Assembly (NCBI RefSeq): GCF_000009905.1 | Contig: NC_006177.1 | Location: 2,984,595-3,048,594 of the forward strand | Direction of reading: 5' to 3' | Length of the DNA: 64,000 bases | Source: Symbiobacterium thermophilum IAM 14863 | GTDB taxonomy: Bacteria > Bacillota > Sulfobacillia > Symbiobacteriales > Symbiobacteriaceae | In this document: positions 36,152-55,343 of the stretch, piece by piece | Numbering within the stretch: position 1 is the stretch's first letter | How the letters are laid out: every line of letters starts with the position of its first letter | The notes under the pieces: generated by a model | Databases searched by the model: none | Seen by the model: only the letters and a program-made list of their open reading frames with translations | What the model was told of the DNA's origin: nothing | Translations under genes and position numbers: made by a program

Positions 36152-36997
36152 TCACCCGGCCTTTCGCTCATCGATGGCAAACCGGCCGTCCCGGCCGTAG
36201 ATGCCGCGATGGACGTGTTCGACGTACCGCACCGCCAGGTACGCAAGGAGGATGCTCTCGGCCAGCGCCACCGGAAGCAGGCTCAGCAGGAGCCCCGGCA
36301 GCCCGGGGATGATCCTGGCCACCAGCCAGCCTGCCGCCTCGCCGGCGACCGAGATCAGGATGAACATGAGCGCGGCCCCCACAGCCTCCCGCCAGCGTTC
36401 GGTGAGCACGCCGACGCTGTCTCCCATCGCCTCGGTGGCGGTGCCTTCCTCGACCACCAGCGCGAAATCCGCGTAGAGCACCGCGCTGATGCCCGCCAAG
36501 AGGGCCGCCAGGCCGGCGATGGGCACCAGCCAGCCCGCCAGCACGGACCCGGCCAGCACGTACACCAGACCAGCCGCCAGGGCGGCCGCCACCAGCACCA
36601 GGCCGCACAGCACCCGCACCCCGACCAGCCGGCCCGCGTACCGCCGGATGCCCCCGAGGAAATCCGACGCCTTCGGCGCGCGGCCCTCATGCACCACGGT
36701 CCACAGGATGCCCAGGATTCCGGCGGATCCCAGAAGGACGAGCACGCCGTACAGCACCAGGAGAACCCACGAACCTTTCTGCCCGAAGAATAGGGTCACG
36801 TCCGCCCCCTGACCGGCGAACTGCACGGGCAGCAGCAGGACCAGCGCGTCCGCCAGACTGACCGGAAGCAGCCCGAGCAGCGCCCCCACCAGCGCGACCG
36901 TGAGCCCCGGCACCACCGCGACCGCCAGGCACGCGAGGAACAGCCCCGGCCAGTGGCGCCGCCACACCGCGATCCCGCGCTCCAGGACATTCGCCAA
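36152..36997 (-). CDS. Polytopic membrane protein of unknown function
   Basis: Six to seven TM helices, no recognisable motif. Confidence 0.4.
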   Translation of the reverse strand: MANVLERGIAVWRRHWPGLFLACLAVAVVPGLTVALVGALLGLLPVSLADALVLLLPVQFAGQGADVTLFFGQKGSWVLLVLYGVLVLLGSAGILGILWTVVHEGRAPKASDFLGGIRRYAGRLVGVRVLCGLVLVAAALAAGLVYVLAGSVLAGWLVPIAGLAALLAGISAVLYADFALVVEEGTATEAMGDSVGVLTERWREAVGAALMFILISVAGEAAGWLVARIIPGLPGLLLSLLPVALAESILLAYLAVRYVEHVHRGIYGRDGRFAIDERKAG

Positions 36998-37850: not shown

Positions 37851-38633
37851 CTACCCCGGCACCAACCCGAAACAGACGCCCACCGGGTCCTGGATGGCTG
37901 CGCAGACGTACGCGCCGTCCCGGTCCCTCACTTCCTTGATCACCCTTCCGCCCTCCGCCTCGGCCCGGCGGAGGCTCTCCGCGATGTCCCCCACGGTCAG
38001 GTACAGCATCCAGACCGGCGGCAGACCGGCGTTGGGGCCGCGCGCGTGGCGGATGGTCGCCGCGCCCTGGCCGTCGCCGCCGAGCATGGCGTAGTCGGCG
38101 TACCGCCCGTCGCCGTCCTCCACCGGCACGTCCTGCACCGACCAGCCGATGACCTCCCGGTAGAAGTCGCGGGCGGCGGCTGCGTCGGAAACCGTGAGAT
38201 CGAGCCGGGCGATGCGGCCGACCGGGCCGGCGGCAGGGGGCACAGGCGGGATCGCCTCCCGGGGAATGACCGGGATGACGCCGAAGGCCGCCCCGTTCGG
38301 ATCCTGCAACACGGCCCACTGGCTGTTGCCGGCTGCGTCCTTCTGGTGCATGAGCGCGCGCCCGCCCAGGTCCAGCGCTCGGCGCACGCTGGCGGCGACG
38401 TCCGCCACCTGGATGTGCGGCATCCACTGGAGCGGCAGGTGTGCGTACTCCGGCATCCGCGGCCCCAGGCCGATGATGGGGATGCCCAGGTTGTTCATGA
38501 GATCCTCGCACCAGAGGGGATTCGGCCCCGTGCGGAGCACCCGGGCATAGAAGCGCAGCTCCCGTTCGTGTTCGGGAACGGCGATGTCGGCGCTGAAGAC
38601 CCCGCCGAGGCGCGGCGCAAACAGTGCTTCCAT
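37851..38633 (-). CDS. Tandem VOC/glyoxalase-fold protein
   Basis: Two VOC-like modules; ATG after AGGAGAAACCGG. Confidence 0.55.
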   Translation of the reverse strand: MEALFAPRLGGVFSADIAVPEHERELRFYARVLRTGPNPLWCEDLMNNLGIPIIGLGPRMPEYAHLPLQWMPHIQVADVAASVRRALDLGGRALMHQKDAAGNSQWAVLQDPNGAAFGVIPVIPREAIPPVPPAAGPVGRIARLDLTVSDAAAARDFYREVIGWSVQDVPVEDGDGRYADYAMLGGDGQGAATIRHARGPNAGLPPVWMLYLTVGDIAESLRRAEAEGGRVIKEVRDRDGAYVCAAIQDPVGVCFGLVPG

Positions 38634-38698
38634 CCGGTTTCTCCTGCTTGGGTGTGATGGGGCGAGCACGGCCGGGACCGTTCCCGGATCACGCGCGG

Positions 38699-41600
38699 CT
38701 ACGAGAAGTACCTGGCGATGATCGCCTCAGCGTCCTTGCTCAGGTTGCCGGACTCAAAGGTCACCACCAGCCTCCCGGGGAAGAAGCGGTCGTACCATTT
38801 CCGCTTCTCTTCCCAGTGCCTGCGGTAGCGCTCGTCGGTAAGCAGACCCACGTGCTCCCAGTACCATTCTTCCCCGTGCCACGTGATTGTAAAGTCCGGC
38901 AGGTAGAAGGTCCCGTCGGGGGCGTAGAGCGGCACTTCGTACTGGAACCGGATGTCCCGCTCGAACAGCATGTTCGCAATGATGACCTCGGACTTGGAGC
39001 GCACCATGATGTCGGCCAGGGTTCGGTGGATCTTGCCTTCCGCGTACCAGTCCGCCCGCTGCTTCAGCGCCTCGGGCACAGGCTGGAACCGGAACAGGGA
39101 GGAATTGATCGTCACCAGGCTCGAGTTCTCCCGGCGGCGCATGCTGAGCAGGGGCGAGATGTCCTCCTCCACCAGCAGGGTGCAGTGGCGACGGGCTCTG
39201 GTGAGTCCGGTGTAGAACAGCTCCGGCGAGAGCAGTGTGCGCCTGTTCTTGGGGACCACAAAATAGACCCGGTCGAACTCGCTGCCTTGAGACTTGTGCA
39301 CGGAGATGGCGTAAGCCAGTTCCAGGTTGTCCTCCACCGGCTCCGCGGGCAGGGGACGCCGGTTCGGGCCGAAGCCGGGATTGCGACCGTAACCCACCCG
39401 GTAAGAGCCTTTCCGGGGGAACACGACCTGAAACCGCTCCAGCGACCTGAGCCGCAGCTTGTCCAGTTTATGAGGATACACAAACCCGAGTTCGCCGTTG
39501 TACACCTCTATCTGTTCCGGCCTCCCCTGGTCTGCGTTCCACGCCCAGATGGGGTTAGACCGCGGGCGGTTCCGGACTTGGATCACCTTGTCATACAGGG
39601 TGACGCCCCCTAGCGTTCCCGGCTCTTCCAACATGCGCTGGTTGGCGCACTGCTGCAGGACGCTGTTCAGGTACTCGGTTCCGACCGTGTCCCCCCGGTA
39701 CGGAGAGAGTACCTGCTGGTACTCCGGCCTGCCGGGCCCCCGGTCCCGGCCGAACGCCGCAGCCCACAGCTCCCAGGGCCTATCCGGATCGTACTTCCTG
39801 CCGGTGTCGGCTTCCATGTCCCGGATGATGCAGTCGATCAGGGCAGCCTCGAGCTCCTCGTAGCCCGACCAGTAGATCACCCGGAGGTCCTTATCGACGT
39901 CGCCGCCTTCCTGGACCCTCCGAAGAATCTCTTCCGCGGCCTCCGTCTCGTCGGCGGAGTCCGTCTCGGCGCAGGGGCGCTGTTGGTACAGCGCCGCGAG
40001 GTCGAGGATGCCAGTCCCCTGGCCCAGCAGCCGGTTCTCCATCTGGCGCAGGTTGGTGGTGAGCATGCCGACGCTCTGATCGAACCCGGCCTCCCGGAGC
40101 CACGCGATCAGGTCCGCGAACACCTTTCCCCGGCCGATCGGTGGCAGCTGGTTGGTGTCCCCAACGAAGATCACACGCTGCACGCTGCCCCAGTGGATGG
40201 CGCGACACAGCGCCGCCACGAGTTCGAGGTTCAGCATCGAGGCTTCGTCGATGATGTAGGTTCGGACCGAGTCCTCCTGCCTACCCCCGCTCCGCTTGAA
40301 CGTCAGGTTGTCGTTGAGCCAGCCCAGCCGGGCGAGGAAGGCATGGACGGTTTCGGCTTCCTTGCCGGTCCGCTCCCGGATCCGGTCGGCGGCCTTGCCG
40401 GTGGGCGCAAGCAACCGGAACGACGAACCCGACCCGTGCGCCTTCTCAATGGCCTGGATCAACGCCCTGATGACCGTCGTCTTGCCGGTGCCTGCCGACC
40501 CCGACAGTACGCACAGCGGGCGGACGAAGATCTTCTGGCACACCTCGACCTGGCTTTGGATCGCGGCCTCGTATTCGCCGGCGTCGAGCCTGCAGAGCGG
40601 ACTGTGCGGATCGTACAGGAACGCGCGCCAGTGCTGGGCCGTTACCGGCGACCTAAGGGAAATGTCCGGCCGGCGGACCAAGCCGAGGATCGTCTCCTCC
40701 ACCAGCCGCTCGTCCTCGTACACGGTCCGGAGGTAGAGGTACGGCTTTCCGTCGTGTTCCCGAACGACCAGGGCGGCCGCCAGCTCTTCCCGGTAAGCGC
40801 GCAGGTAGCCCTCGGAGAAGTGCGTCCGCTTCCACTCCGGTAGGGGATCCAGGCGGCGGTTGACCCGCTCCAGCACCTCCGCGGCCGGCAGGAAGGTGCT
40901 GCGCGTCTCCCGCTTCAAATGCTCGACGCACAGGGCCCGCAGCCTCCGCCAGTCGTCAACCTCCGCCAGCGGTGCGCCGCCGAGGTGCGGCGACGGCAGC
41001 ATCCCGTGGTCGATTTTGTGGAACGAGATCGTGTCGTCCTGGTCCTCCCCGACGAACTCCTCCGCGAGGATGTACGGGTTGGCCGCGATCTCCCGCAGGG
41101 ACGACCGGATGCCGTACGCCTCCCGGTCGTCCGCCAGGATCCGCTCCAGTTGGTCTTCCCGAAGGTCGAAGCGCGGGAACACCTCCCGCAGCAGATGCCG
41201 CTGGTCGTCGTTGTAAAGCAGCCACCGCTTGCGAACGCCGGCGATCTCGTTCGGGGCGAGCGTCAGGCCGGGCACAGCCGAGGCATTTCCGTCCAGGAAG
41301 TCGAACAGAAGGTCCCGGGCCGCCGCCTCGCGTCCGCTCCCTACCTGCACCTTGAACCACGGGATGGCCTGGGTGAAGCGGATTAGCTTCAGCACCGCGG
41401 GAAGGCCGGGGTAGAGCCCCCGCTCCCTCCACAGCTCCGCGATCAGGCCCTGCAGCCACGCAATGCGCCGTGGCCAGTCCTCGGTCTGGTCGCCGATCTC
41501 CTGCAAGGTCGTCGCCACTTCGAGGAAGCGCTCCACCAGTACCAGTGCGTCGTCGTCCGAAATGTGCCGCGTTCCATATTTGAAGTTGCGCGGGTTGTCC

Positions 41601-42289
41601 GGGAACAGGGCGATGCGGTGAAGGACTTCGGGCCGGTCCATGTACACGTGGTACGGGATTCGCATCCCCTCGTCCGGATAGTGTGAGGTCACGGCGCGCT
41701 GCCAGACGTACCCGCCCCAACGCTCCCGCGTCTCGCGGCTCACGTTCCGGTACACCAGCTCGGGGCCGACCGCCTTCACCCGGGAGAGACCCACCAGAAC
41801 GTATCGCCGCTGCTCGTCGTCGCTGAATGGGTTGCTGTAGTTTGCATAGTAGAAGATTAAGCTCTTGCTCTCCTGGATCTCCTCGAAGTACCGACGCGCC
41901 TTCTCCCGCCGCAGCTCGTAGTTGAAGCCGCCGTTGGGCTGGCGTACGTCGTCTTCATACATCAGTTCATACGGCCAGATGCAGACCGTGGACGGCGGCA
42001 TCTCCCATTCGACTCTGTCCTCATCGTGGAACCACTCCGGCGTGACGGCATACGCCGTGGTGGTCTCGGAACCGAAGGCGTTCACGCTGTACATACAGGG
42101 CGGAATAACGTCCTTGGTGCAGGTGCAGCCGCGATGGGCCTGCTCCCACGGCAGGTCCCGCTGCTCGGCGATCATCGTGCCCGGGTACGAATAGGGGCCG
42201 ATGCAGTACGTGTTGGCCTCGGGCCGCGAGCAGATGCGCCCGTTCCATCCGTCCAGATGCCAGGCCACGCGGGCAGAAATGTGAACCAT
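38699..42289 (-). CDS. 1196-aa multidomain protein: unknown Cys/Trp-rich N-terminal domain + RecD2-like SF1 helicase + C-terminal PD-(D/E)xK (Vsr/DUF559-like) nuclease; candidate defence/DNA-processing protein
   Basis: Walker A GSAGTGKTT, Walker B YIIDEASM, VGDTNQLPPIGRG, YAISVHKSQGSEFDRVYFVV, LFYTGLTRARRHCTLL. RecD2-like N-terminal segment IAANPYILAEEFVG. C-terminal IIANMLFERDIRFQYEVPLY...YLPDFTI...EEWYWEHVG. ATG (MVHISA) after GGTGGGAG. Confidence 0.6.
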   Translation of the reverse strand: MVHISARVAWHLDGWNGRICSRPEANTYCIGPYSYPGTMIAEQRDLPWEQAHRGCTCTKDVIPPCMYSVNAFGSETTTAYAVTPEWFHDEDRVEWEMPPSTVCIWPYELMYEDDVRQPNGGFNYELRREKARRYFEEIQESKSLIFYYANYSNPFSDDEQRRYVLVGLSRVKAVGPELVYRNVSRETRERWGGYVWQRAVTSHYPDEGMRIPYHVYMDRPEVLHRIALFPDNPRNFKYGTRHISDDDALVLVERFLEVATTLQEIGDQTEDWPRRIAWLQGLIAELWRERGLYPGLPAVLKLIRFTQAIPWFKVQVGSGREAAARDLLFDFLDGNASAVPGLTLAPNEIAGVRKRWLLYNDDQRHLLREVFPRFDLREDQLERILADDREAYGIRSSLREIAANPYILAEEFVGEDQDDTISFHKIDHGMLPSPHLGGAPLAEVDDWRRLRALCVEHLKRETRSTFLPAAEVLERVNRRLDPLPEWKRTHFSEGYLRAYREELAAALVVREHDGKPYLYLRTVYEDERLVEETILGLVRRPDISLRSPVTAQHWRAFLYDPHSPLCRLDAGEYEAAIQSQVEVCQKIFVRPLCVLSGSAGTGKTTVIRALIQAIEKAHGSGSSFRLLAPTGKAADRIRERTGKEAETVHAFLARLGWLNDNLTFKRSGGRQEDSVRTYIIDEASMLNLELVAALCRAIHWGSVQRVIFVGDTNQLPPIGRGKVFADLIAWLREAGFDQSVGMLTTNLRQMENRLLGQGTGILDLAALYQQRPCAETDSADETEAAEEILRRVQEGGDVDKDLRVIYWSGYEELEAALIDCIIRDMEADTGRKYDPDRPWELWAAAFGRDRGPGRPEYQQVLSPYRGDTVGTEYLNSVLQQCANQRMLEEPGTLGGVTLYDKVIQVRNRPRSNPIWAWNADQGRPEQIEVYNGELGFVYPHKLDKLRLRSLERFQVVFPRKGSYRVGYGRNPGFGPNRRPLPAEPVEDNLELAYAISVHKSQGSEFDRVYFVVPKNRRTLLSPELFYTGLTRARRHCTLLVEEDISPLLSMRRRENSSLVTINSSLFRFQPVPEALKQRADWYAEGKIHRTLADIMVRSKSEVIIANMLFERDIRFQYEVPLYAPDGTFYLPDFTITWHGEEWYWEHVGLLTDERYRRHWEEKRKWYDRFFPGRLVVTFESGNLSKDAEAIIARYFS

Positions 42290-42366
42290 GCAACCAACTC
42301 CCACCCTTCCCGACCCAGGGTCGTCTTGCCACAGACATTTCCAGCCTGCGTCCGGAATTCCCTGCC

Positions 42367-42828
42367 TCAGTCCCGCCCCCCGAACCGCGCCTTCAGCCGC
42401 TCCACTTCGGCGGCCTCCAGGCGGCGGAACAGCGGCGGGATGAGCTGGAACTGCCTGCCCGGAGCCAGCGCAGACAGGTCGACGCACCGCTGCAGGGGGA
42501 CCTTCCGTTCATCCGGCGTCAACTGCAGGGCGTCGAACACCCTCTGGGCGGTGAAGGGGAGGATCGGCTCCGCCGCAAGCGCGAAGATGCGGACCAGGTT
42601 CAGCGCGGTGCGCAGGACCATGGCCCCCGCCTCCCGGTCCTCCTTCACCAGGTTCCAGGGGGCCCGGTCCTCTAGGTAGCGGTTGCCCAGGGTGCAGAGC
42701 CGACGCATCGCCTGCACGGCCTTGCGGAACTCCACGCTCCGCAGGTGCGACCGGTACTCCCCGACGGCCGCGGCGCACTCCCGGGCCAGCGCCTGCTCCC
42801 GCTCCCCGGGCTCGCCGCCGGCCGGCAC
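42367..42828 (-). pseudogene. metG: 3' remnant (C-terminal about 150 codons) of a methionyl-tRNA synthetase gene, truncated at the IS left end
   Basis: NRYLEDRAPWNLVKEDRE and the C-terminal ...IPPLFRRLE match the MetRS anticodon-binding/C-terminal region. In-frame upstream sequence runs straight into the IS inverted repeat, where a TGA occurs. Confidence 0.5.
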
Positions 42829-42834
42829 GTAGCT

Positions 42835-44545
42835 GTCAAGTCAAAGTGGGGTAAGCGTCCTCTCCCTGAGTATGCGTTCAGCAATTGCGAAGGCAAATAT
42901 CGAAGCACAGTGCGCCCCTGGACAAACCCTCCTGCGCTTTCTACGCACTCGCCTGCCGCGTGGGGATCATGCGGCTGCGCCACGGAGCCGGCTGTCCGCG
43001 GGAGATGAGTTCTGAGGTCGGCACGGCCTGCGCCAGACGCTTCAATCGCCGGCCCAGTTCGCTGTTTCCTGCCGCGCTCGCCAACAGAGGCAGCCGTGCC
43101 GCCAACCAGCCTGCAGGGTCCGTCGTGGCCAATCTCTCGATGACCCGGCACGGACCATGGCGCCGGTCGACAGCCTTCGCCTCGGGCCAGCGCCGCTTCT
43201 GCCATCCGCCCAGCCAGTGCTTGAGCTGCCCTTCGGCCTCCAGAGAGCGAATCTGCGCCATGTGGTGCGCCCCGCTCGTTCCCCAGCTCATCCCCTTCTT
43301 TGTCATCCGCACCGCAAGGACATGGTTAATCTCGGCCTCCGCCGCACCGAGACCTCTCGCGCCTTCAGGCGCAGGCTTTGGGCCGCCACGCCAATCCAAC
43401 AACCCGTCCCAGTTCGCCTTCAGGTAGCGCCGCAGTTCCTTCACTCACTTTACCTGGTCCTCGCCCCGGGCCACAGCCACCGCCTCGTTCAACACTCGCC
43501 CAAGACCCTTCAGGTCCCCGCTGCGCACCGCATTCAGCGCTCGCCTGACCAGATCCGGCGCAAAGCCCAGCGCCTCTTGAATTGCCCGATTCCGGTGGAA
43601 CGGGTCCAGGTACAGTTCTACGTTCGAAAAGTGCTTTCGCGCTTCCTTGATCCACTCCGCTCCATCGCCATTTACGATCACCCGTCCCACCTTCTCCGGG
43701 TCGTACCGTTGCGCAAAGCAGATATCCCCACGCTCCCAAAACGCCTCTGCCTGCATGTACCCGGCCCAGACCGCCTTGTTCATTAACCGGAACCGCTCGC
43801 CTGCCGGGCTCTCGGCCTCCCATCCCTCGTGCATCACGGCCAGCTTCAACTCCGCCACTCTCTGGCGTTCCCGCTGCAGGGGAATGTACATGCCGTCTGC
43901 CTCGATCACCACCATCTCAGCGCCACGGCCTTCGCTCTCAGGTGCCTGACCCCGTTCAAAAACCGCCTGCACCTCTTCACGAAACTGCCGATCCCGCTCC
44001 TGTCCCGCCTCCTGCAGCCACCGGTGCACCTCCTGGTGGCTGACAGGTACCCTCAGGTGTTCCCGCAGCACAGTCGCCGCCTCGCGAAACGACATCCTGG
44101 CCGCCAGCTCCACCGCCAGTTCCTGCACCAGCGGGCAGAAGCGCTCCTCCGGCAATAGCCCCAGCATCTCGTCCAGCGGATAGCGGTATGCCCAGCTGCC
44201 GTCCGGTCGCCGCTGTCGGTAGCCACGGGGCCGAAACCGGATCTCCATCCCGAAGAGGCTGACCAGCGTCCGCTCACGCGGCCCGATCGATTCCCACCCC
44301 TTCAAGCTCTCCTCTCGCTCCCGCTGGTTCTCTATCTCGGCCAGCACCGTCTCAACCTGCTGGCAGAAATCCGCCGCCAGCTTCTCCAACAGCCACTGAA
44401 CAAGATCCTTGAAGGACGTCACAGAATCCGCTACCTTGAACATAGGACCTCCCCCCGGAATCCTTCGGGATTCTGAGTGTGTCGCCACTCAGGGGAGGTC
44501 TTTACTATTTCACGTTCGCTGATCCTGCTTGCCCCAATTTGATGT
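42835..44545 (-). mobile_element. ISLre2-family-like insertion sequence (about 1.7 kb)
   Basis: Imperfect terminal inverted repeats TCAAAGTGGGGTAAGCG (left) and TCAAATTGGGGCAAGCAG (right, reverse complement); internal UPF0236-type transposase. Confidence 0.6.
42941..44443 (-). CDS. ISLre2/UPF0236-family transposase interrupted by one in-frame TGA (43445-43447)
   Basis: A 333-aa N-part (starting MFKVADSV after GGGGGGAGG) and a 167-aa C-part are contiguous in the same frame, separated by TGA only. Confidence 0.55.
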
Positions 44546-53280: not shown

Positions 53281-54297
53281 CTACTTCGTCCGCATGTGGC
53301 AGGCGACCCAGTGGTCGTTGCCCACGTCCACCAGCGGCGGCTCCTCCTCCTTGCAGATGTCGCCGACCTGCGGCTGATAGCGGCACCGGGTGTGGAACCG
53401 GCAGCCCGAAGGCGGATTGACCGGCGAGGGCACGTCGCCCTCCAGCACGATCCGCTCCCGCTTCAGCGTCGGATCGGGGATCGGAATGGCGGACATCAGC
53501 GCCTCGGTGTACGGGTGCAGCGGATTGGTGTACAGCTCGTTCGCCGGCGAGATCTCCATCATCTTGCCCAGGTACATCACGCCGACCCGGTCGGAGACGT
53601 GCTTCACCACCGCCAGGCCGTGGGCGATGAACAGGTAGGTCAGCCCGAACTCCTTCTGCAGGTCCTCCAGCAGGTTGAGCACCTGCGACTGGATCGACAC
53701 GTCCAGCGCCGACACCGGCTCGTCGCAGACGATCAGCTTCGGGTTCAGCGCCAGCGCCCGGGCGATGCCGATACGCTGCCGCTGGCCGCCGGAGAACTCG
53801 TGCGGATACCGCCGGGCGTGGAACGAGGCCAGGCCCACCACGTCCAGCAGCTCGTGGACCCGCTTGGTCTTGGCCGCGCCCCGGGCCACGCCGTGGATCT
53901 CCAGCGGCTCGCCGATGATGTCGCCCACCGTCATGCGGGGGTTCAGCGAGGAGTACGGGTCCTGGAAGATGATCTGCATCTCCCGCCGGAGCTTGCGCAT
54001 CTCCTCGCGGTTCAGTTCGTAGATGTTCCTTCCCTCAAAGTAGACCTGGCCTTCCGTGGGCTCCTGCAGCCGCAGCAGAACCTTGCCCATCGTGGTCTTG
54101 CCGCAGCCGGACTCGCCCACCAGACCCAGCGTCTCACCGCGGCGGATCTGGAAGGAGACGCCGTCCACCGCCTTGGCGTAACCCACTGTGCGGGCGATGA
54201 TGCCGCCGCCGGTGACGGGGAAGTGCTTCTTCAGGTTGCGCACGTCGACCAGGACGTCGCCGGTCTGCGCCTTGGTGCCAACCGCGGTGCTCATCAC
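53281..54297 (-). CDS. Oligopeptide/dipeptide ABC transporter ATP-binding protein (OppF/DppF-like)
   Basis: Walker [10 protein letters not shown], signature LSGGQRQR, C-terminal oligopeptide-ABC extension with Cys motif. Confidence 0.8.
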
Positions 54298-55343
54298 GCC
54301 GTGACCCCCTTCATGAGCCGTTCTTCAGCGAGGAAGCAGGCAACTTTCCGCCCGGGCGCCACCTGCTGAAGGGTGGGCTGTTCGGCCCGGCACCGGTCGG
54401 TTGCCACGGGGCACCGCGGATGGAACCGGCAGCCTTCGGGCAGGTTCAGCGGATTCGGCACCGCGCCCTCGATCACGTGCAGCTTCTCAACCTCCTGATC
54501 GAGGCGCGGGATCGACTTCAGCAGACCCTCGGTGTACGGGTGAAGGGGATTCTGGAAGAGAGCGACCGCATCGGCCTCCTCCACCACCTTGCCGGCGTAC
54601 ATGACGACCACGCGCTCGCACATCTCCGCCACGACGCCCAGGTCGTGGGTGATGAGCATGATCGCCATGCCCAGCTCCTTCTTCAGCTTCTTCATCAGCT
54701 CCAGGATCTGGGCCTGGATCGTCACGTCCAGCGCGGTGGTGGGCTCGTCCGCGATGAGCAGCTTCGGGTTGCAGGACAGCGCCATCGCGATCATGACGCG
54801 CTGCCGCATACCGCCCGACAGCTGGTGCGGATACTCCTTCACCCGCTGCTCGGGCAGCGGGATGCCAACCAGCCGCAGCATCTCGATGGCCTTCTCGATC
54901 GCTTCCTTGTGCGACAGGCCCTGATGCAGCTCGATGGCCTCGGCGATCTGATCCCCGATGGTGTAGACCGGGTTCAGCGAGGTCATCGGCTCCTGGAAGA
55001 TCATGGAGATCTCGTTCCCCCGGATCTTCCGCATCTCCGCCTCGGACTTCTTGAGCAGATCCTCACCCTCGAACAGGATCTCGCCACCCACGATCTTGCC
55101 CGGGGGATTGGGAATGAGCCTCATGATCGAGAGGGAGGTTACACTCTTCCCGCAGCCGGACTCGCCCACGACACCCAGGGTTTCACCACGGTTGATATAG
55201 AGATCCACCCCGTCAACGGCCTTTACGACGCCGTCTTCGGTGAAATAGTGGGTCTGAAGGTTTCGGATTTCGACCAGCTTCTCGCTCACAGGCTCACTCC
55301 TCTTCTCCTTCACACCTACACATGACTCCGCCCGGCGTTTCAT
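54294..55343 (-). CDS. Oligopeptide/dipeptide ABC transporter ATP-binding protein (OppD/DppD-like)
   Basis: Walker [10 protein letters not shown], signature LSGGMRQR; ATGA overlap with the downstream ATPase gene. Confidence 0.8.

Follow-up and report, generated by a model that had tools for sequence, protein, structure and literature searches.

The gene at the centre of the locus in the thermophile Symbiobacterium thermophilum encodes a protein of 1196 aa on the minus strand of the window (the whole 64,000-nucleotide stretch of DNA that was analysed), and the reading frame, as called in an earlier note made from the sequence alone, is real and complete, running from an ATG at 42289 to a stop codon at 38699-38701 (Table 1). 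An alternative GTG start, reading to 42487, would make the frame share sequence with the last part of the metG-like ORF upstream (stop at 42367-42369), and the ATG, which is immediately preceded by the purine-rich GGGTGGGAG, is therefore the sensible start. The reading as a pseudogene or decaying relic was rejected, as all family-invariant residues are present; it is also countered by an intact 1196-aa copy on a contig from a separate sequencing run (SRR23005522), which aligns to the window over 4308 bp at 99.77% identity. A scan for promoters and terminators returned nothing informative.

On one side the gene is adjoined by what had been described as an ISLre2-like IS and a truncated metG, and these were recovered as a decayed UPF0236 transposase gene and a remnant of the MetRS anticodon domain. 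The other flank consists, again in keeping with the first reading, of unrelated housekeeping-type genes (glyoxalase-like, methyltransferase, LD-carboxypeptidase, and Gdh), with gdh, gatAB, ligA, and pcrA nearby in the window. The copy in the window is solo, i.e., without an RM, BREX, or DISARM neighbour and outside any defence island. Its GC content is 64.9% vs 68.1% for the window (7th percentile of equal-sized windows) and its GC3 is 0.87 vs about 0.90-0.95 in most neighbouring genes; hence, the AT-richness remarked on earlier holds as a slightly lower GC and GC3 than the surroundings, but is only mild. Its solitary position in a housekeeping region, with the degraded IS and the metG fragment at its side, is consistent with horizontal acquisition, and seen from the S. 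thermophilum genome alone this is an unremarkable gene of defence type, probably acquired horizontally. The inverted-repeat search for the IS ends recovered weak, chance-like pairs only. Exact-protein look-ups with the window protein and two of its neighbours, made for synteny in other Symbiobacterium strains, returned no record, and the cupin neighbour was found elsewhere only on short contigs that do not extend as far as the gene.

Table 1. Features of the locus and predicted domains of the encoded protein (coordinates are positions in the window)
Feature	Residues	Coordinates	Strand	Basis or remark
Complete ORF, member of PADLOC candidate family PDC-S68		38699..42289	-	1196 aa + stop
Vsr/DUF559-like PD-(D/E)xK nuclease domain	1086-1196	38702..39034	-	
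SF1B RecD-like helicase/translocase core (predicted)	578-1040	39170..40558	-	Pfam, PDB RecD/RecD2, motifs
RecD2 N-terminal (pre-motor) equivalent	438-577	40559..40978	-	TIGR01448 alignment
All-helical domain after the sensor domain	246-437	40979..41554	-	
Beta-rich N-terminal domain, putative PUA-like (YTH/EVE-like) sensor	1-245	41555..42289	-	
MetRS anticodon-domain remnant		42367-42828		153 aa
UPF0236 (ISLre2-type) transposase		42941-44488		Broken by in-frame stop

The three-part anatomy proposed earlier, namely an N-terminal domain, a helicase, and a C-terminal nuclease, proved correct. The central segment is a predicted SF1B motor, for which Pfam recovers AAA_30 (E 6.5e-32), AAA_19, UvrD_C_2, and a weak SH3_13, and searches of PDB sequences recover RecD (E 1.8e-25) and RecD2 (E 5e-22). 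It carries Walker A (GSAGTGKT, 597-604, with K603), Walker B (IIDEASM, 679-685, with D681/E682), motifs III-VI, and an SH3-like insert, with further conserved stretches at 709-719 (VGDTNQLPPIG), 995-1006 (ISVHKSQGSEFD), and 1026-1033 (YTGLTRAR). All these motifs are intact, bearing out the earlier reading of a complete RecD2-like SF1 core, and the complete SF1B set predicts an NTP-driven translocase. The preceding residues 246-577 are predicted to be helical and to resemble the N-terminal region of RecD2: the NCBIfam RecD2 model (TIGR01448) aligns residues 396-730 to its positions 165-462, and one homologue shows a weak HHH_RecD2 match at the place equivalent to residues 438-577. Thus, the motor and the region before it align to RecD2 and share the SH3-like insert with it; however, the TIGR01448 match reaches 238 bits vs a curated cutoff of 500, covering only residues 396-730 and a second stretch, and the protein differs from RecD2/RecD in its additional ~395 N-terminal residues, its C-terminal nuclease, and its defence-type context.

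The nuclease fold of the Vsr-like C-terminal domain was confirmed, the top fold match being to a homing endonuclease, and the invariant nuclease residues are E1101, D1132 (LPDF), E1145-H1146 (WEHVG), and K1162; a nuclease domain with its catalytic residues, as expected of type IV restriction, is present. Pfam on the C-terminal 158 residues searched separately gave no match at E<=10, and phmmer of this segment against PDB sequences returned chance matches to sorting nexin only. The effector is modular across the family, with a Schlafen AlbA_2 domain at the C-terminus of one homologue and no nuclease in another.

At the N-terminus, the earlier note had set aside ~470 aa as unassignable. This stands with respect to Pfam, which finds no match within residues 1-~570 even at E<=10 (with the N-terminal 597 residues searched separately), but the RecD2 model covers residues ~396-577 with its N-terminal part and residues 1-245 give a grey-zone fold match to PUA-like (YTH/EVE-like) domains. 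The latter region, which is specific to the PDC-S68 family, is rich in conserved aromatics (W10, H11, W15, W105, Y107, Y147, Y148, W196, and Y213) and has three near-invariant cysteines (C20, C29, and C65). Of these, W10, W15, Y147, and W196 would line a putative aromatic reader pocket, and the cysteines may form a metal site. Its alpha/beta fold matches fall in just two families, YTH (the best) and EVE, both modified-base readers, and we consider it a probable, if putative, modified-base-reader-like domain. A Foldseek search of PDB with the structure model of the N-terminus recovered nothing at E<0.26, the profile of the domain matched no PDB sequence, and hhalign of that profile with the EVE protein from locus L001 gave a probability of 0.1%.

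Two earlier statements, that the protein is an orphan and that it matches no nameable system, did not survive a search with the PADLOC models: it matches PDLC05066 (PDC-S68) from end to end (E=0, 1779 bits, with residues 2-1193 aligned to model positions 3-1199 of 1202), and PDLC05065 and PDLC05064 match it too. PDC-S68 is a single-gene candidate among the 145 phage defence candidates that were computationally proposed on the principle of guilt-by-embedding, from genes nested in BREX, DISARM, and type I RM loci (Payne et al., bioRxiv 10.1101/2024.01.29.577857). It is, therefore, a catalogued family, and the proposal of a defence candidate is reasonable rather than new. A literature search for PDC-S68, including the supplements of that preprint, returned no mention of it and no published domain analysis or experimental report, and it is absent from the PDC candidates tested in PMC12881386. 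The search with the N-domain profile yields 1373 clusters at 50% identity, placing PDC-S68 among the larger candidate defence families. It extends over most bacterial phyla, with members in 205 species-representative genomes and a patchy, cross-phylum spread at 45-60% identity. Among the best 150 N-domain profile matches, all proteins of full length fall in the same length class, and the alignment extends over ~residues 2-1196 in 74 of 79 loci, indicating an architecture conserved end to end. Relatives are also carried on 24 plasmids, 22 of which are typed as non-mobilizable.

The homologues occur within or beside type I, ISP, and III RM, BREX type 3, DISARM class 1, Druantia, pAgo-SIR2, DRT, and PARIS loci. 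Genes for HsdMSR, BrxC-PglXI-BrxHI, DrmD/DrmMI, a type III MTase, or TmtA/Mokosh-like products lie within 10 kb in 40 of the 74 loci that extend over at least 12 kb, and recurrent RM, BREX, or DISARM neighbour clusters are absent from the other ~34. The gene is often sandwiched between the components of one system, in the same orientation and a few bases away from them: between PglXI and BrxHI at five loci, between HsdS and HsdR at four, and embedded in DISARM at another. One homologue adjoins a type I RM system with SIR2, 19 further sampled loci include DruE, pAgo+SIR2, DRT1a, AriA, and OLD, and two of the plasmid homologues lie beside a type ISP RM enzyme and a type I RM system, respectively. 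The S. thermophilum protein matches the PDC-S68 HMM along its whole length, over all three modules, and its homologues nest in BREX, DISARM, and type I RM loci as the definition of the family has it; the S. thermophilum copy departs from that definition in standing alone among housekeeping genes, with an IS next to it. These contexts strongly support the single-protein defence candidate that had been put forward; neither a conserved housekeeping or relaxase context nor an N-terminal domain with a known non-defence role, the two observations named earlier as telling against it, was found.

Taken together, we favour, with a probability of about 0.6, an autonomous single-polypeptide ATP-driven helicase-nuclease that defends against phages or other invading DNA, possibly in a modification-dependent (type IV-like) manner. 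A defence function of the PDC-S68 family as such is quite probable. Counted for it are the PDC-S68 match, the conserved architecture, the contexts of the homologues, the modular effector, the patchy spread, the slightly atypical composition, and the fold matches; counted against it is the position of the window copy outside a defence island. In the order of events that we infer, the beta-rich N-terminal domain would act as a sensor selecting the target nucleic acid, the RecD2-like SF1B motor would then translocate 5'->3' along DNA using ATP, and the Vsr-like PD-(D/E)xK domain would then cut the DNA. The trigger is the most conjectural of these steps: because the fold of the N-domain resembles the YTH/EVE modified-base readers, a base modification on phage DNA, as in type IV restriction, would be the likeliest one, and we put it forward only tentatively. 

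The clustering of type IV enzymes with RM and BREX genes, or their nesting among these, has precedents in the hsd-mrr-mcrBC region of E. coli and in BrxU of BREX, and a nuclease, a helicase, and a reader are united in a single chain in the type IV enzyme SauUSI. SauUSI, from S. aureus, follows the logic proposed here in that one polypeptide combines nuclease, ATP-driven helicase-like motor, and modified-base reader (10.1101/2025.10.16.682607). However, its modules are a PLD nuclease, an SF2 motor, and a DUF3427 reader, whereas the present protein runs in the reverse direction, from a PUA-like N-domain through an SF1B RecD-like motor to a PD-(D/E)xK nuclease, and none of the SauUSI Pfam domains was found in it; the two are analogous, not homologous. 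PvuRts1I/AbaSI and the YTH-like or EVE-fused type IV enzymes (MspJI-like, McrB N-terminal variants) differ in being without a helicase motor or in having the McrB GTPase, and the reader match of our protein is at the level of the fold, in the grey zone. It is doubtful, though worth stating, that residues 1-245 are a previously undescribed Cys/Trp-rich branch of the PUA-like (YTH/EVE) domains and PDC-S68 a new, widespread class of ATP-dependent modification-sensing restriction with an SF1B RecD-type motor. Two versions of such a class are possible, viz., an attack on modified phage DNA or, more unusually, a reading of host m6A as 'self' and hence a piggybacking on any neighbouring adenine methylase. 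If the sensor does read base modifications, it would add both a new reader domain and a new type of motor to type IV restriction and would help explain the nesting inside RM, BREX, and DISARM loci. The present analysis adds a testable domain model (sensor, SF1B motor, and Vsr-like nuclease), candidate residues for point mutants, and quantified neighbourhoods of the homologues.

A defence helicase-nuclease with a trigger other than modification, such as ssDNA, DNA ends, replication or recombination intermediates, RNA, or a phage protein, after the logic of Nhi, Hna, Hhe, and DruE, would account equally for the defence contexts, and we regard it as an unlikely, yet serious, alternative. PUA-like domains bind RNA and unmodified nucleic acids too, and the SF1B RecD-type motor of RecD2 loads on ssDNA ends, both of which count in its favour, as does the grey-zone nature of the PUA-like fold match. 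Hhe (HheA) and Nhi are likewise single-protein defence enzymes combining an SF1 helicase with a nuclease, and Hhe shares the C-terminal Vsr/DUF559 endonuclease. However, the motor is RecD-type (SF1B) here rather than Upf1-like, the N-terminal domain is peculiar to PDC-S68, no significant Hhe or Nhi model is among the PADLOC matches listed, and Gabija GajB matches at E of at least 2e-4 in ~residues 579-654 around Walker A, with no match beyond the P-loop. The restriction of the alpha/beta fold matches to two modified-base reader families also speaks against a trigger of this kind.

The tight link to m6A-methylase-based systems could mean that the protein depends on them functionally and does not act independently. 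In this case the protein would be a generic accessory of methylation-based immunity, whose YTH-like domain reads host m6A as 'self', stopping or releasing the motor-nuclease so that unmethylated DNA is attacked, with the protein piggybacking on the m6A methylase that happens to be at hand, be it from type I, ISP, or III RM, BREX, or DISARM. The partners are strikingly consistent, all being adenine-methylase-based, with the gene often between their components, and the best fold match is to YTH, an m6A reader. We nevertheless consider such dependence improbable, given the solo window copy, the ~34 loci without the recurrent clusters, and the many homologues beside unrelated systems (pAgo, DRT, and Druantia). 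Moreover, the embedding of unrelated autonomous systems in such loci is common (10.1101/2024.01.29.577857).

A housekeeping repair or recombination helicase, i.e., a RecD2 paralogue with an added nuclease, is suggested by RecD2 being the best NCBIfam match and by the gdh, gatAB, ligA, and pcrA genes near it in the window, but is highly improbable and was rejected in view of the below-cutoff RecD2 score, the patchy cross-phylum spread, the variable and defence-rich neighbourhoods, the flanking IS and gene remnant, and the GC3 below that of the neighbours. Scarcely credible is a mobile-element function, either as a conjugative relaxase-helicase (TraA/TraI-like) or as a selfish homing-endonuclease-like gene tied to the IS, which the weak TraA/TraI matches over the helicase core, the homing endonuclease among the fold matches, the adjoining IS, and the plasmid-borne relatives might evoke: TraA_Ti scores 58.7 vs a cutoff of 590 and TraI 52.2 vs 2212, both over the motor only, Pfam finds no relaxase domain, an IS is not a recurrent neighbour of the homologues, and the largely non-mobilizable plasmids carry the gene by RM genes.

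The 1196-aa product of the gene under study, which the earlier note had described from the sequence as a RecD2-like helicase flanked by an unassigned N-terminal region and a nuclease, is encoded as described there. A mechanical reading of the ORF reaches a GTG at 42487; however, as this extension overlaps the 3′ end of an upstream MetRS-like ORF (stop at 42367–42369) and GGGTGGGAG precedes the ATG at 42289, the latter is the likely start. Ten housekeeping proteins encoded in the window match BAD417xx/WP_0111968xx entries exactly, in line with its origin in Symbiobacterium thermophilum IAM 14863. Run SRR23005522 yields a Logan contig, 99.77% identical to positions 38431–42738 of the window, in which the 1196-aa ORF is uninterrupted and its product is listed as 100% identical to the window protein; the gene is therefore neither an artefact of assembly nor a copy in decay.

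The protein had been thought to match no known system, but a PADLOC search recovers a full-length match (PDLC05066, 1779 bits, residues 2–1193 against 3–1199 of the 1202 model positions) to PDC-S68, a candidate phage defence family. The PDC systems are 145 candidates proposed from their embedding in BREX, DISARM, or type I restriction-modification (RM) loci (Payne et al., 10.1101/2024.01.29.577857). A literature search including the supplements of that study found no mention of PDC-S68, and the PDC candidates put to the test in PMC12881386 do not include it. At 55–61% identity, the protein is a further member of this already catalogued family, which is large: at E≤1e-10 it recovers more than 800 clusters (90% identity), the best 120 of which are 1132–1249 aa long and 54–61% identical to it, with the exception of one identical entry. 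Searches with a profile of the N-terminal domain gave 1373 representatives at 50% identity, the full-length ones nearly all being 1150–1320 aa, and the homologues are labelled in RefSeq simply as 'AAA family ATPase'. Among the GTDB species representatives there are 205 PDC-S68 loci, distributed across Planctomycetota, Chloroflexota, Acidobacteriota, Bacillota, Actinomycetota, Bacteroidota, Proteobacteria, and other phyla; the highest identity of the window protein to any of these is 58%, and the alignment spans approximately residues 2–1196 in 74 of 79 loci. Variants include a 1370-aa protein with a C-terminal Schlafen AlbA_2 domain (P0323), a 1068-aa version that stops after the motor and has no nuclease (P0258), and a subfamily of about 1300 aa (P0344, P0363, P0382) with 90–100 or so additional N-terminal residues lacking a Pfam match. 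Relatives occur on 24 plasmids and essentially none were found in phages. A distant plasmid subfamily retains about 25% identity across the whole N-terminal domain; it comprises versions from Rhizobium plasmids (H4–H5) and from many Bacillus cereus megaplasmids of roughly 300–460 kb (H6–H20), the latter again annotated as 'AAA family ATPase'.

The three-part anatomy stands. The motor contains AAA_30 (residues 578–729, E 6.5e-32), AAA_19, and UvrD_C_2 (991–1038) domains with a weak match to the RecD SH3 domain, and the SF1 motif set is complete (see table). Its best NCBIfam match, to RecD2, scores 238 bits where the cutoff is 500 and aligns from residue 396; among sequences with solved structures, RecD (E 1.8e-25) and RecD2 (E 5e-22) come closest. 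The C-terminus has no match by sequence methods; an AlphaFold model of residues 1038–1196 built from 31 homologues (core pLDDT 88–97) supports the previously suggested Vsr/DUF559-like nuclease at the fold level, with E1101, D1132 (LPDF), E1145-H1146 (WEHVG), and K1162 invariant in all 31 sequences.

The N-terminus shows no Pfam match even at E≤10, and a profile search of solved structures found no relative. Its model (residues 1–437, from 22 sequences; pLDDT 82, pTM 0.84) displays a β-rich domain (approximately 1–245) followed by a confident helical domain (246–437). The former is highly conserved, its invariant or near-invariant residues including W10, H11, W15, C20, C29, C65, W105, Y107, the stretch F146-Y147-Y148-A149-N150-Y151-S152-N153-P154, W196, and Y213-H214. 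Of the cysteines that might serve the possible metal-binding module of the earlier note, C20, C29, and C65 are thus near-invariant, and C57 and C103 less conserved. We take the strand-turn-strand element 'LIFYYANYSN...RYVLVGLSRV' of this domain to resemble the YTH core 'vyLlFSvNgSG.F.GvAeM' and the EVE core 'lvlfYhS...ivGiaev', purely as a lead. Foldseek with this model returned nothing significant, the EVE-like protein MJECL36 ranking third (E 0.78, not significant), and hhalign against one EVE protein was negative; hence, a PUA-like sensor is a grey-zone assignment, to which we give slightly better than even odds.

Clustering of the ORFs from 82 loci of homologues, a survey the earlier note had called for, uncovered recurrent neighbors of RM, BREX, and DISARM type: SNF2 helicases scoring as DrmD or BrxHI (21 loci), HsdM (10), HsdR (9), HsdS (9), PglXI methylase (7), BrxC (6), Eco57I/type IIG methylase (6), TmtA/Mokosh-like helicases (4), EcoEI-type HsdR (4), and type III methylase (3). 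Of the 74 loci that extend over 12 kb or more, 40 contain at least one such cluster; in 19 of the others, DruE, pAgo with SIR2, DRT1a, AriA, and OLD are among the neighbors found within 5 kb. The homologue often lies between components of a single system, separated from them by just a few bases, e.g., BrxC-PglXI-[gene]-BrxHI or HsdM-HsdS-[gene]-HsdR. One copy (L002) is lodged in a class 1 DISARM locus, in the order SNF2 helicase, MmeI/Eco57I methylase, GmrSD, HNH, UvrD, homologue, Helicase_C, MZB, and PLD protein; another (L001) is preceded by an Eco57I methylase and followed by a DEAD/Helicase_C/MZB protein, with an EVE protein also in the locus; a third (L004) adjoins a type I RM system with SIR2. 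On plasmids, a Paracoccus version begins 19 nt after a type ISP RM enzyme and a Bartonella version adjoins a type I RM system. As no further neighbor family recurs among the clustered loci, PDC-S68 is best read as a single-gene system. Very large ORFs (1400–1900 aa) also lie beside some homologues (L024:16237–20550, L034:9948–14297, L029:81–5606, and L005:4191–9980, the last with a Druantia DruE score of 560 bits). In the 713-aa metagenomic P0118, an N6_N4 DNA methylase ORF continues directly into MTVHISARIAWH..., where a PDC-S68 homologue begins; this is probably a read-through or gene-calling fusion of two adjacent genes, and a further instance of a methylase directly upstream.

Given the conserved three-module layout with an intact SF1B motor and PD-(D/E)xK site, the PDC-S68 match, and the fact that homologues are persistently found at immune loci, the defence role suggested earlier holds as a candidate function, and we infer an autonomous defence enzyme. 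The N-terminal domain would pick the target, the motor translocate, and the nuclease cut. From the putative YTH/EVE-like fold, our most specific guess for the trigger is a modified base. Such a type IV-like role fits the locations of the homologues, since known type IV enzymes nest in or beside RM or BREX loci, as in the E. coli hsd-mrr-mcrBC region and BrxU; SauUSI, which combines nuclease, motor, and reader in one chain, is a precedent for the layout. A rival is that the trigger is instead ssDNA, DNA ends, RNA, or a phage protein; another is that the domain reads a 'self-mark', so that the protein would piggyback on adenine methylases. There is little support for either a housekeeping RecD2 paralogue or a mobile-element function. 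The fold-level reading of the terminal domains and the quantified neighborhood survey are new here; within this genome the gene itself is unremarkable, yet it flags a large family worth testing.

The window copy is solo. Downstream, a glyoxalase-like gene on the same strand lies 29 nt away, followed by genes for a SAM methyltransferase, a protein without a Pfam match, LD-carboxypeptidase, cupin, and Gdh. Upstream, the ISLre2-like IS and truncated metG noted before are both present, and beyond them lie genes for 5-FTHF cyclo-ligase, a GT2 glycosyltransferase, a TRAM-domain uracil-5 RNA methyltransferase (Pfam tRNA_U5-meth_tr), gatB, gatA, ligA, and pcrA. Across the IS, the MetRS catalytic part is absent and the 5-FTHF cyclo-ligase gene sits there on the opposite strand; the metG fragment is therefore left over from a rearrangement rather than from a simple insertion. 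The transposase gene has the lowest GC3 in the region, and no terminal inverted repeats were found for the IS, which is probably a decayed copy. These flanking remnants, the lower GC of the gene (64.9% versus 68.1% for the window) and GC3 (0.87 versus about 0.90–0.95 in most neighbors), and the 58% best identity to species representatives fit an old horizontal acquisition at an IS-scarred spot.

Features of the window and helicase motifs of the window protein
Feature	Position	Strand	Details
Helicase-nuclease gene	ATG 42289 to stop 38699–38701	-	1196 aa
ORF without Pfam match (E≤1e-3)	36152–36997	-	281 aa; GC3 0.90, good coding statistics; between LD-carboxypeptidase and methyltransferase genes
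MetRS anticodon-domain remnant	42367–42828	-	153 aa, PF19303; C-terminal anticodon-binding domain only
ISLre2-type (Pfam UPF0236) transposase gene	42941–44488	-	GC3 0.76; one in-frame stop at 43445–43447, giving 347-aa and 167-aa ORFs
SF1 motif GSAGTGKT	residues 597–604
SF1 motif IIDEASM	residues 679–685
SF1 motif VGDTNQLPPIG	residues 709–719
SF1 motif ISVHKSQGSEFD	residues 995–1006
SF1 motif YTGLTRAR	residues 1026–1033

Elsewhere in the window, an oligopeptide-type ABC ATPase gene (54294–55343, minus strand) has an unusually low GC of 62.5% and a GC3 of 0.85; the GC3 of its paralogous neighbor (53281–54297) is 0.95.
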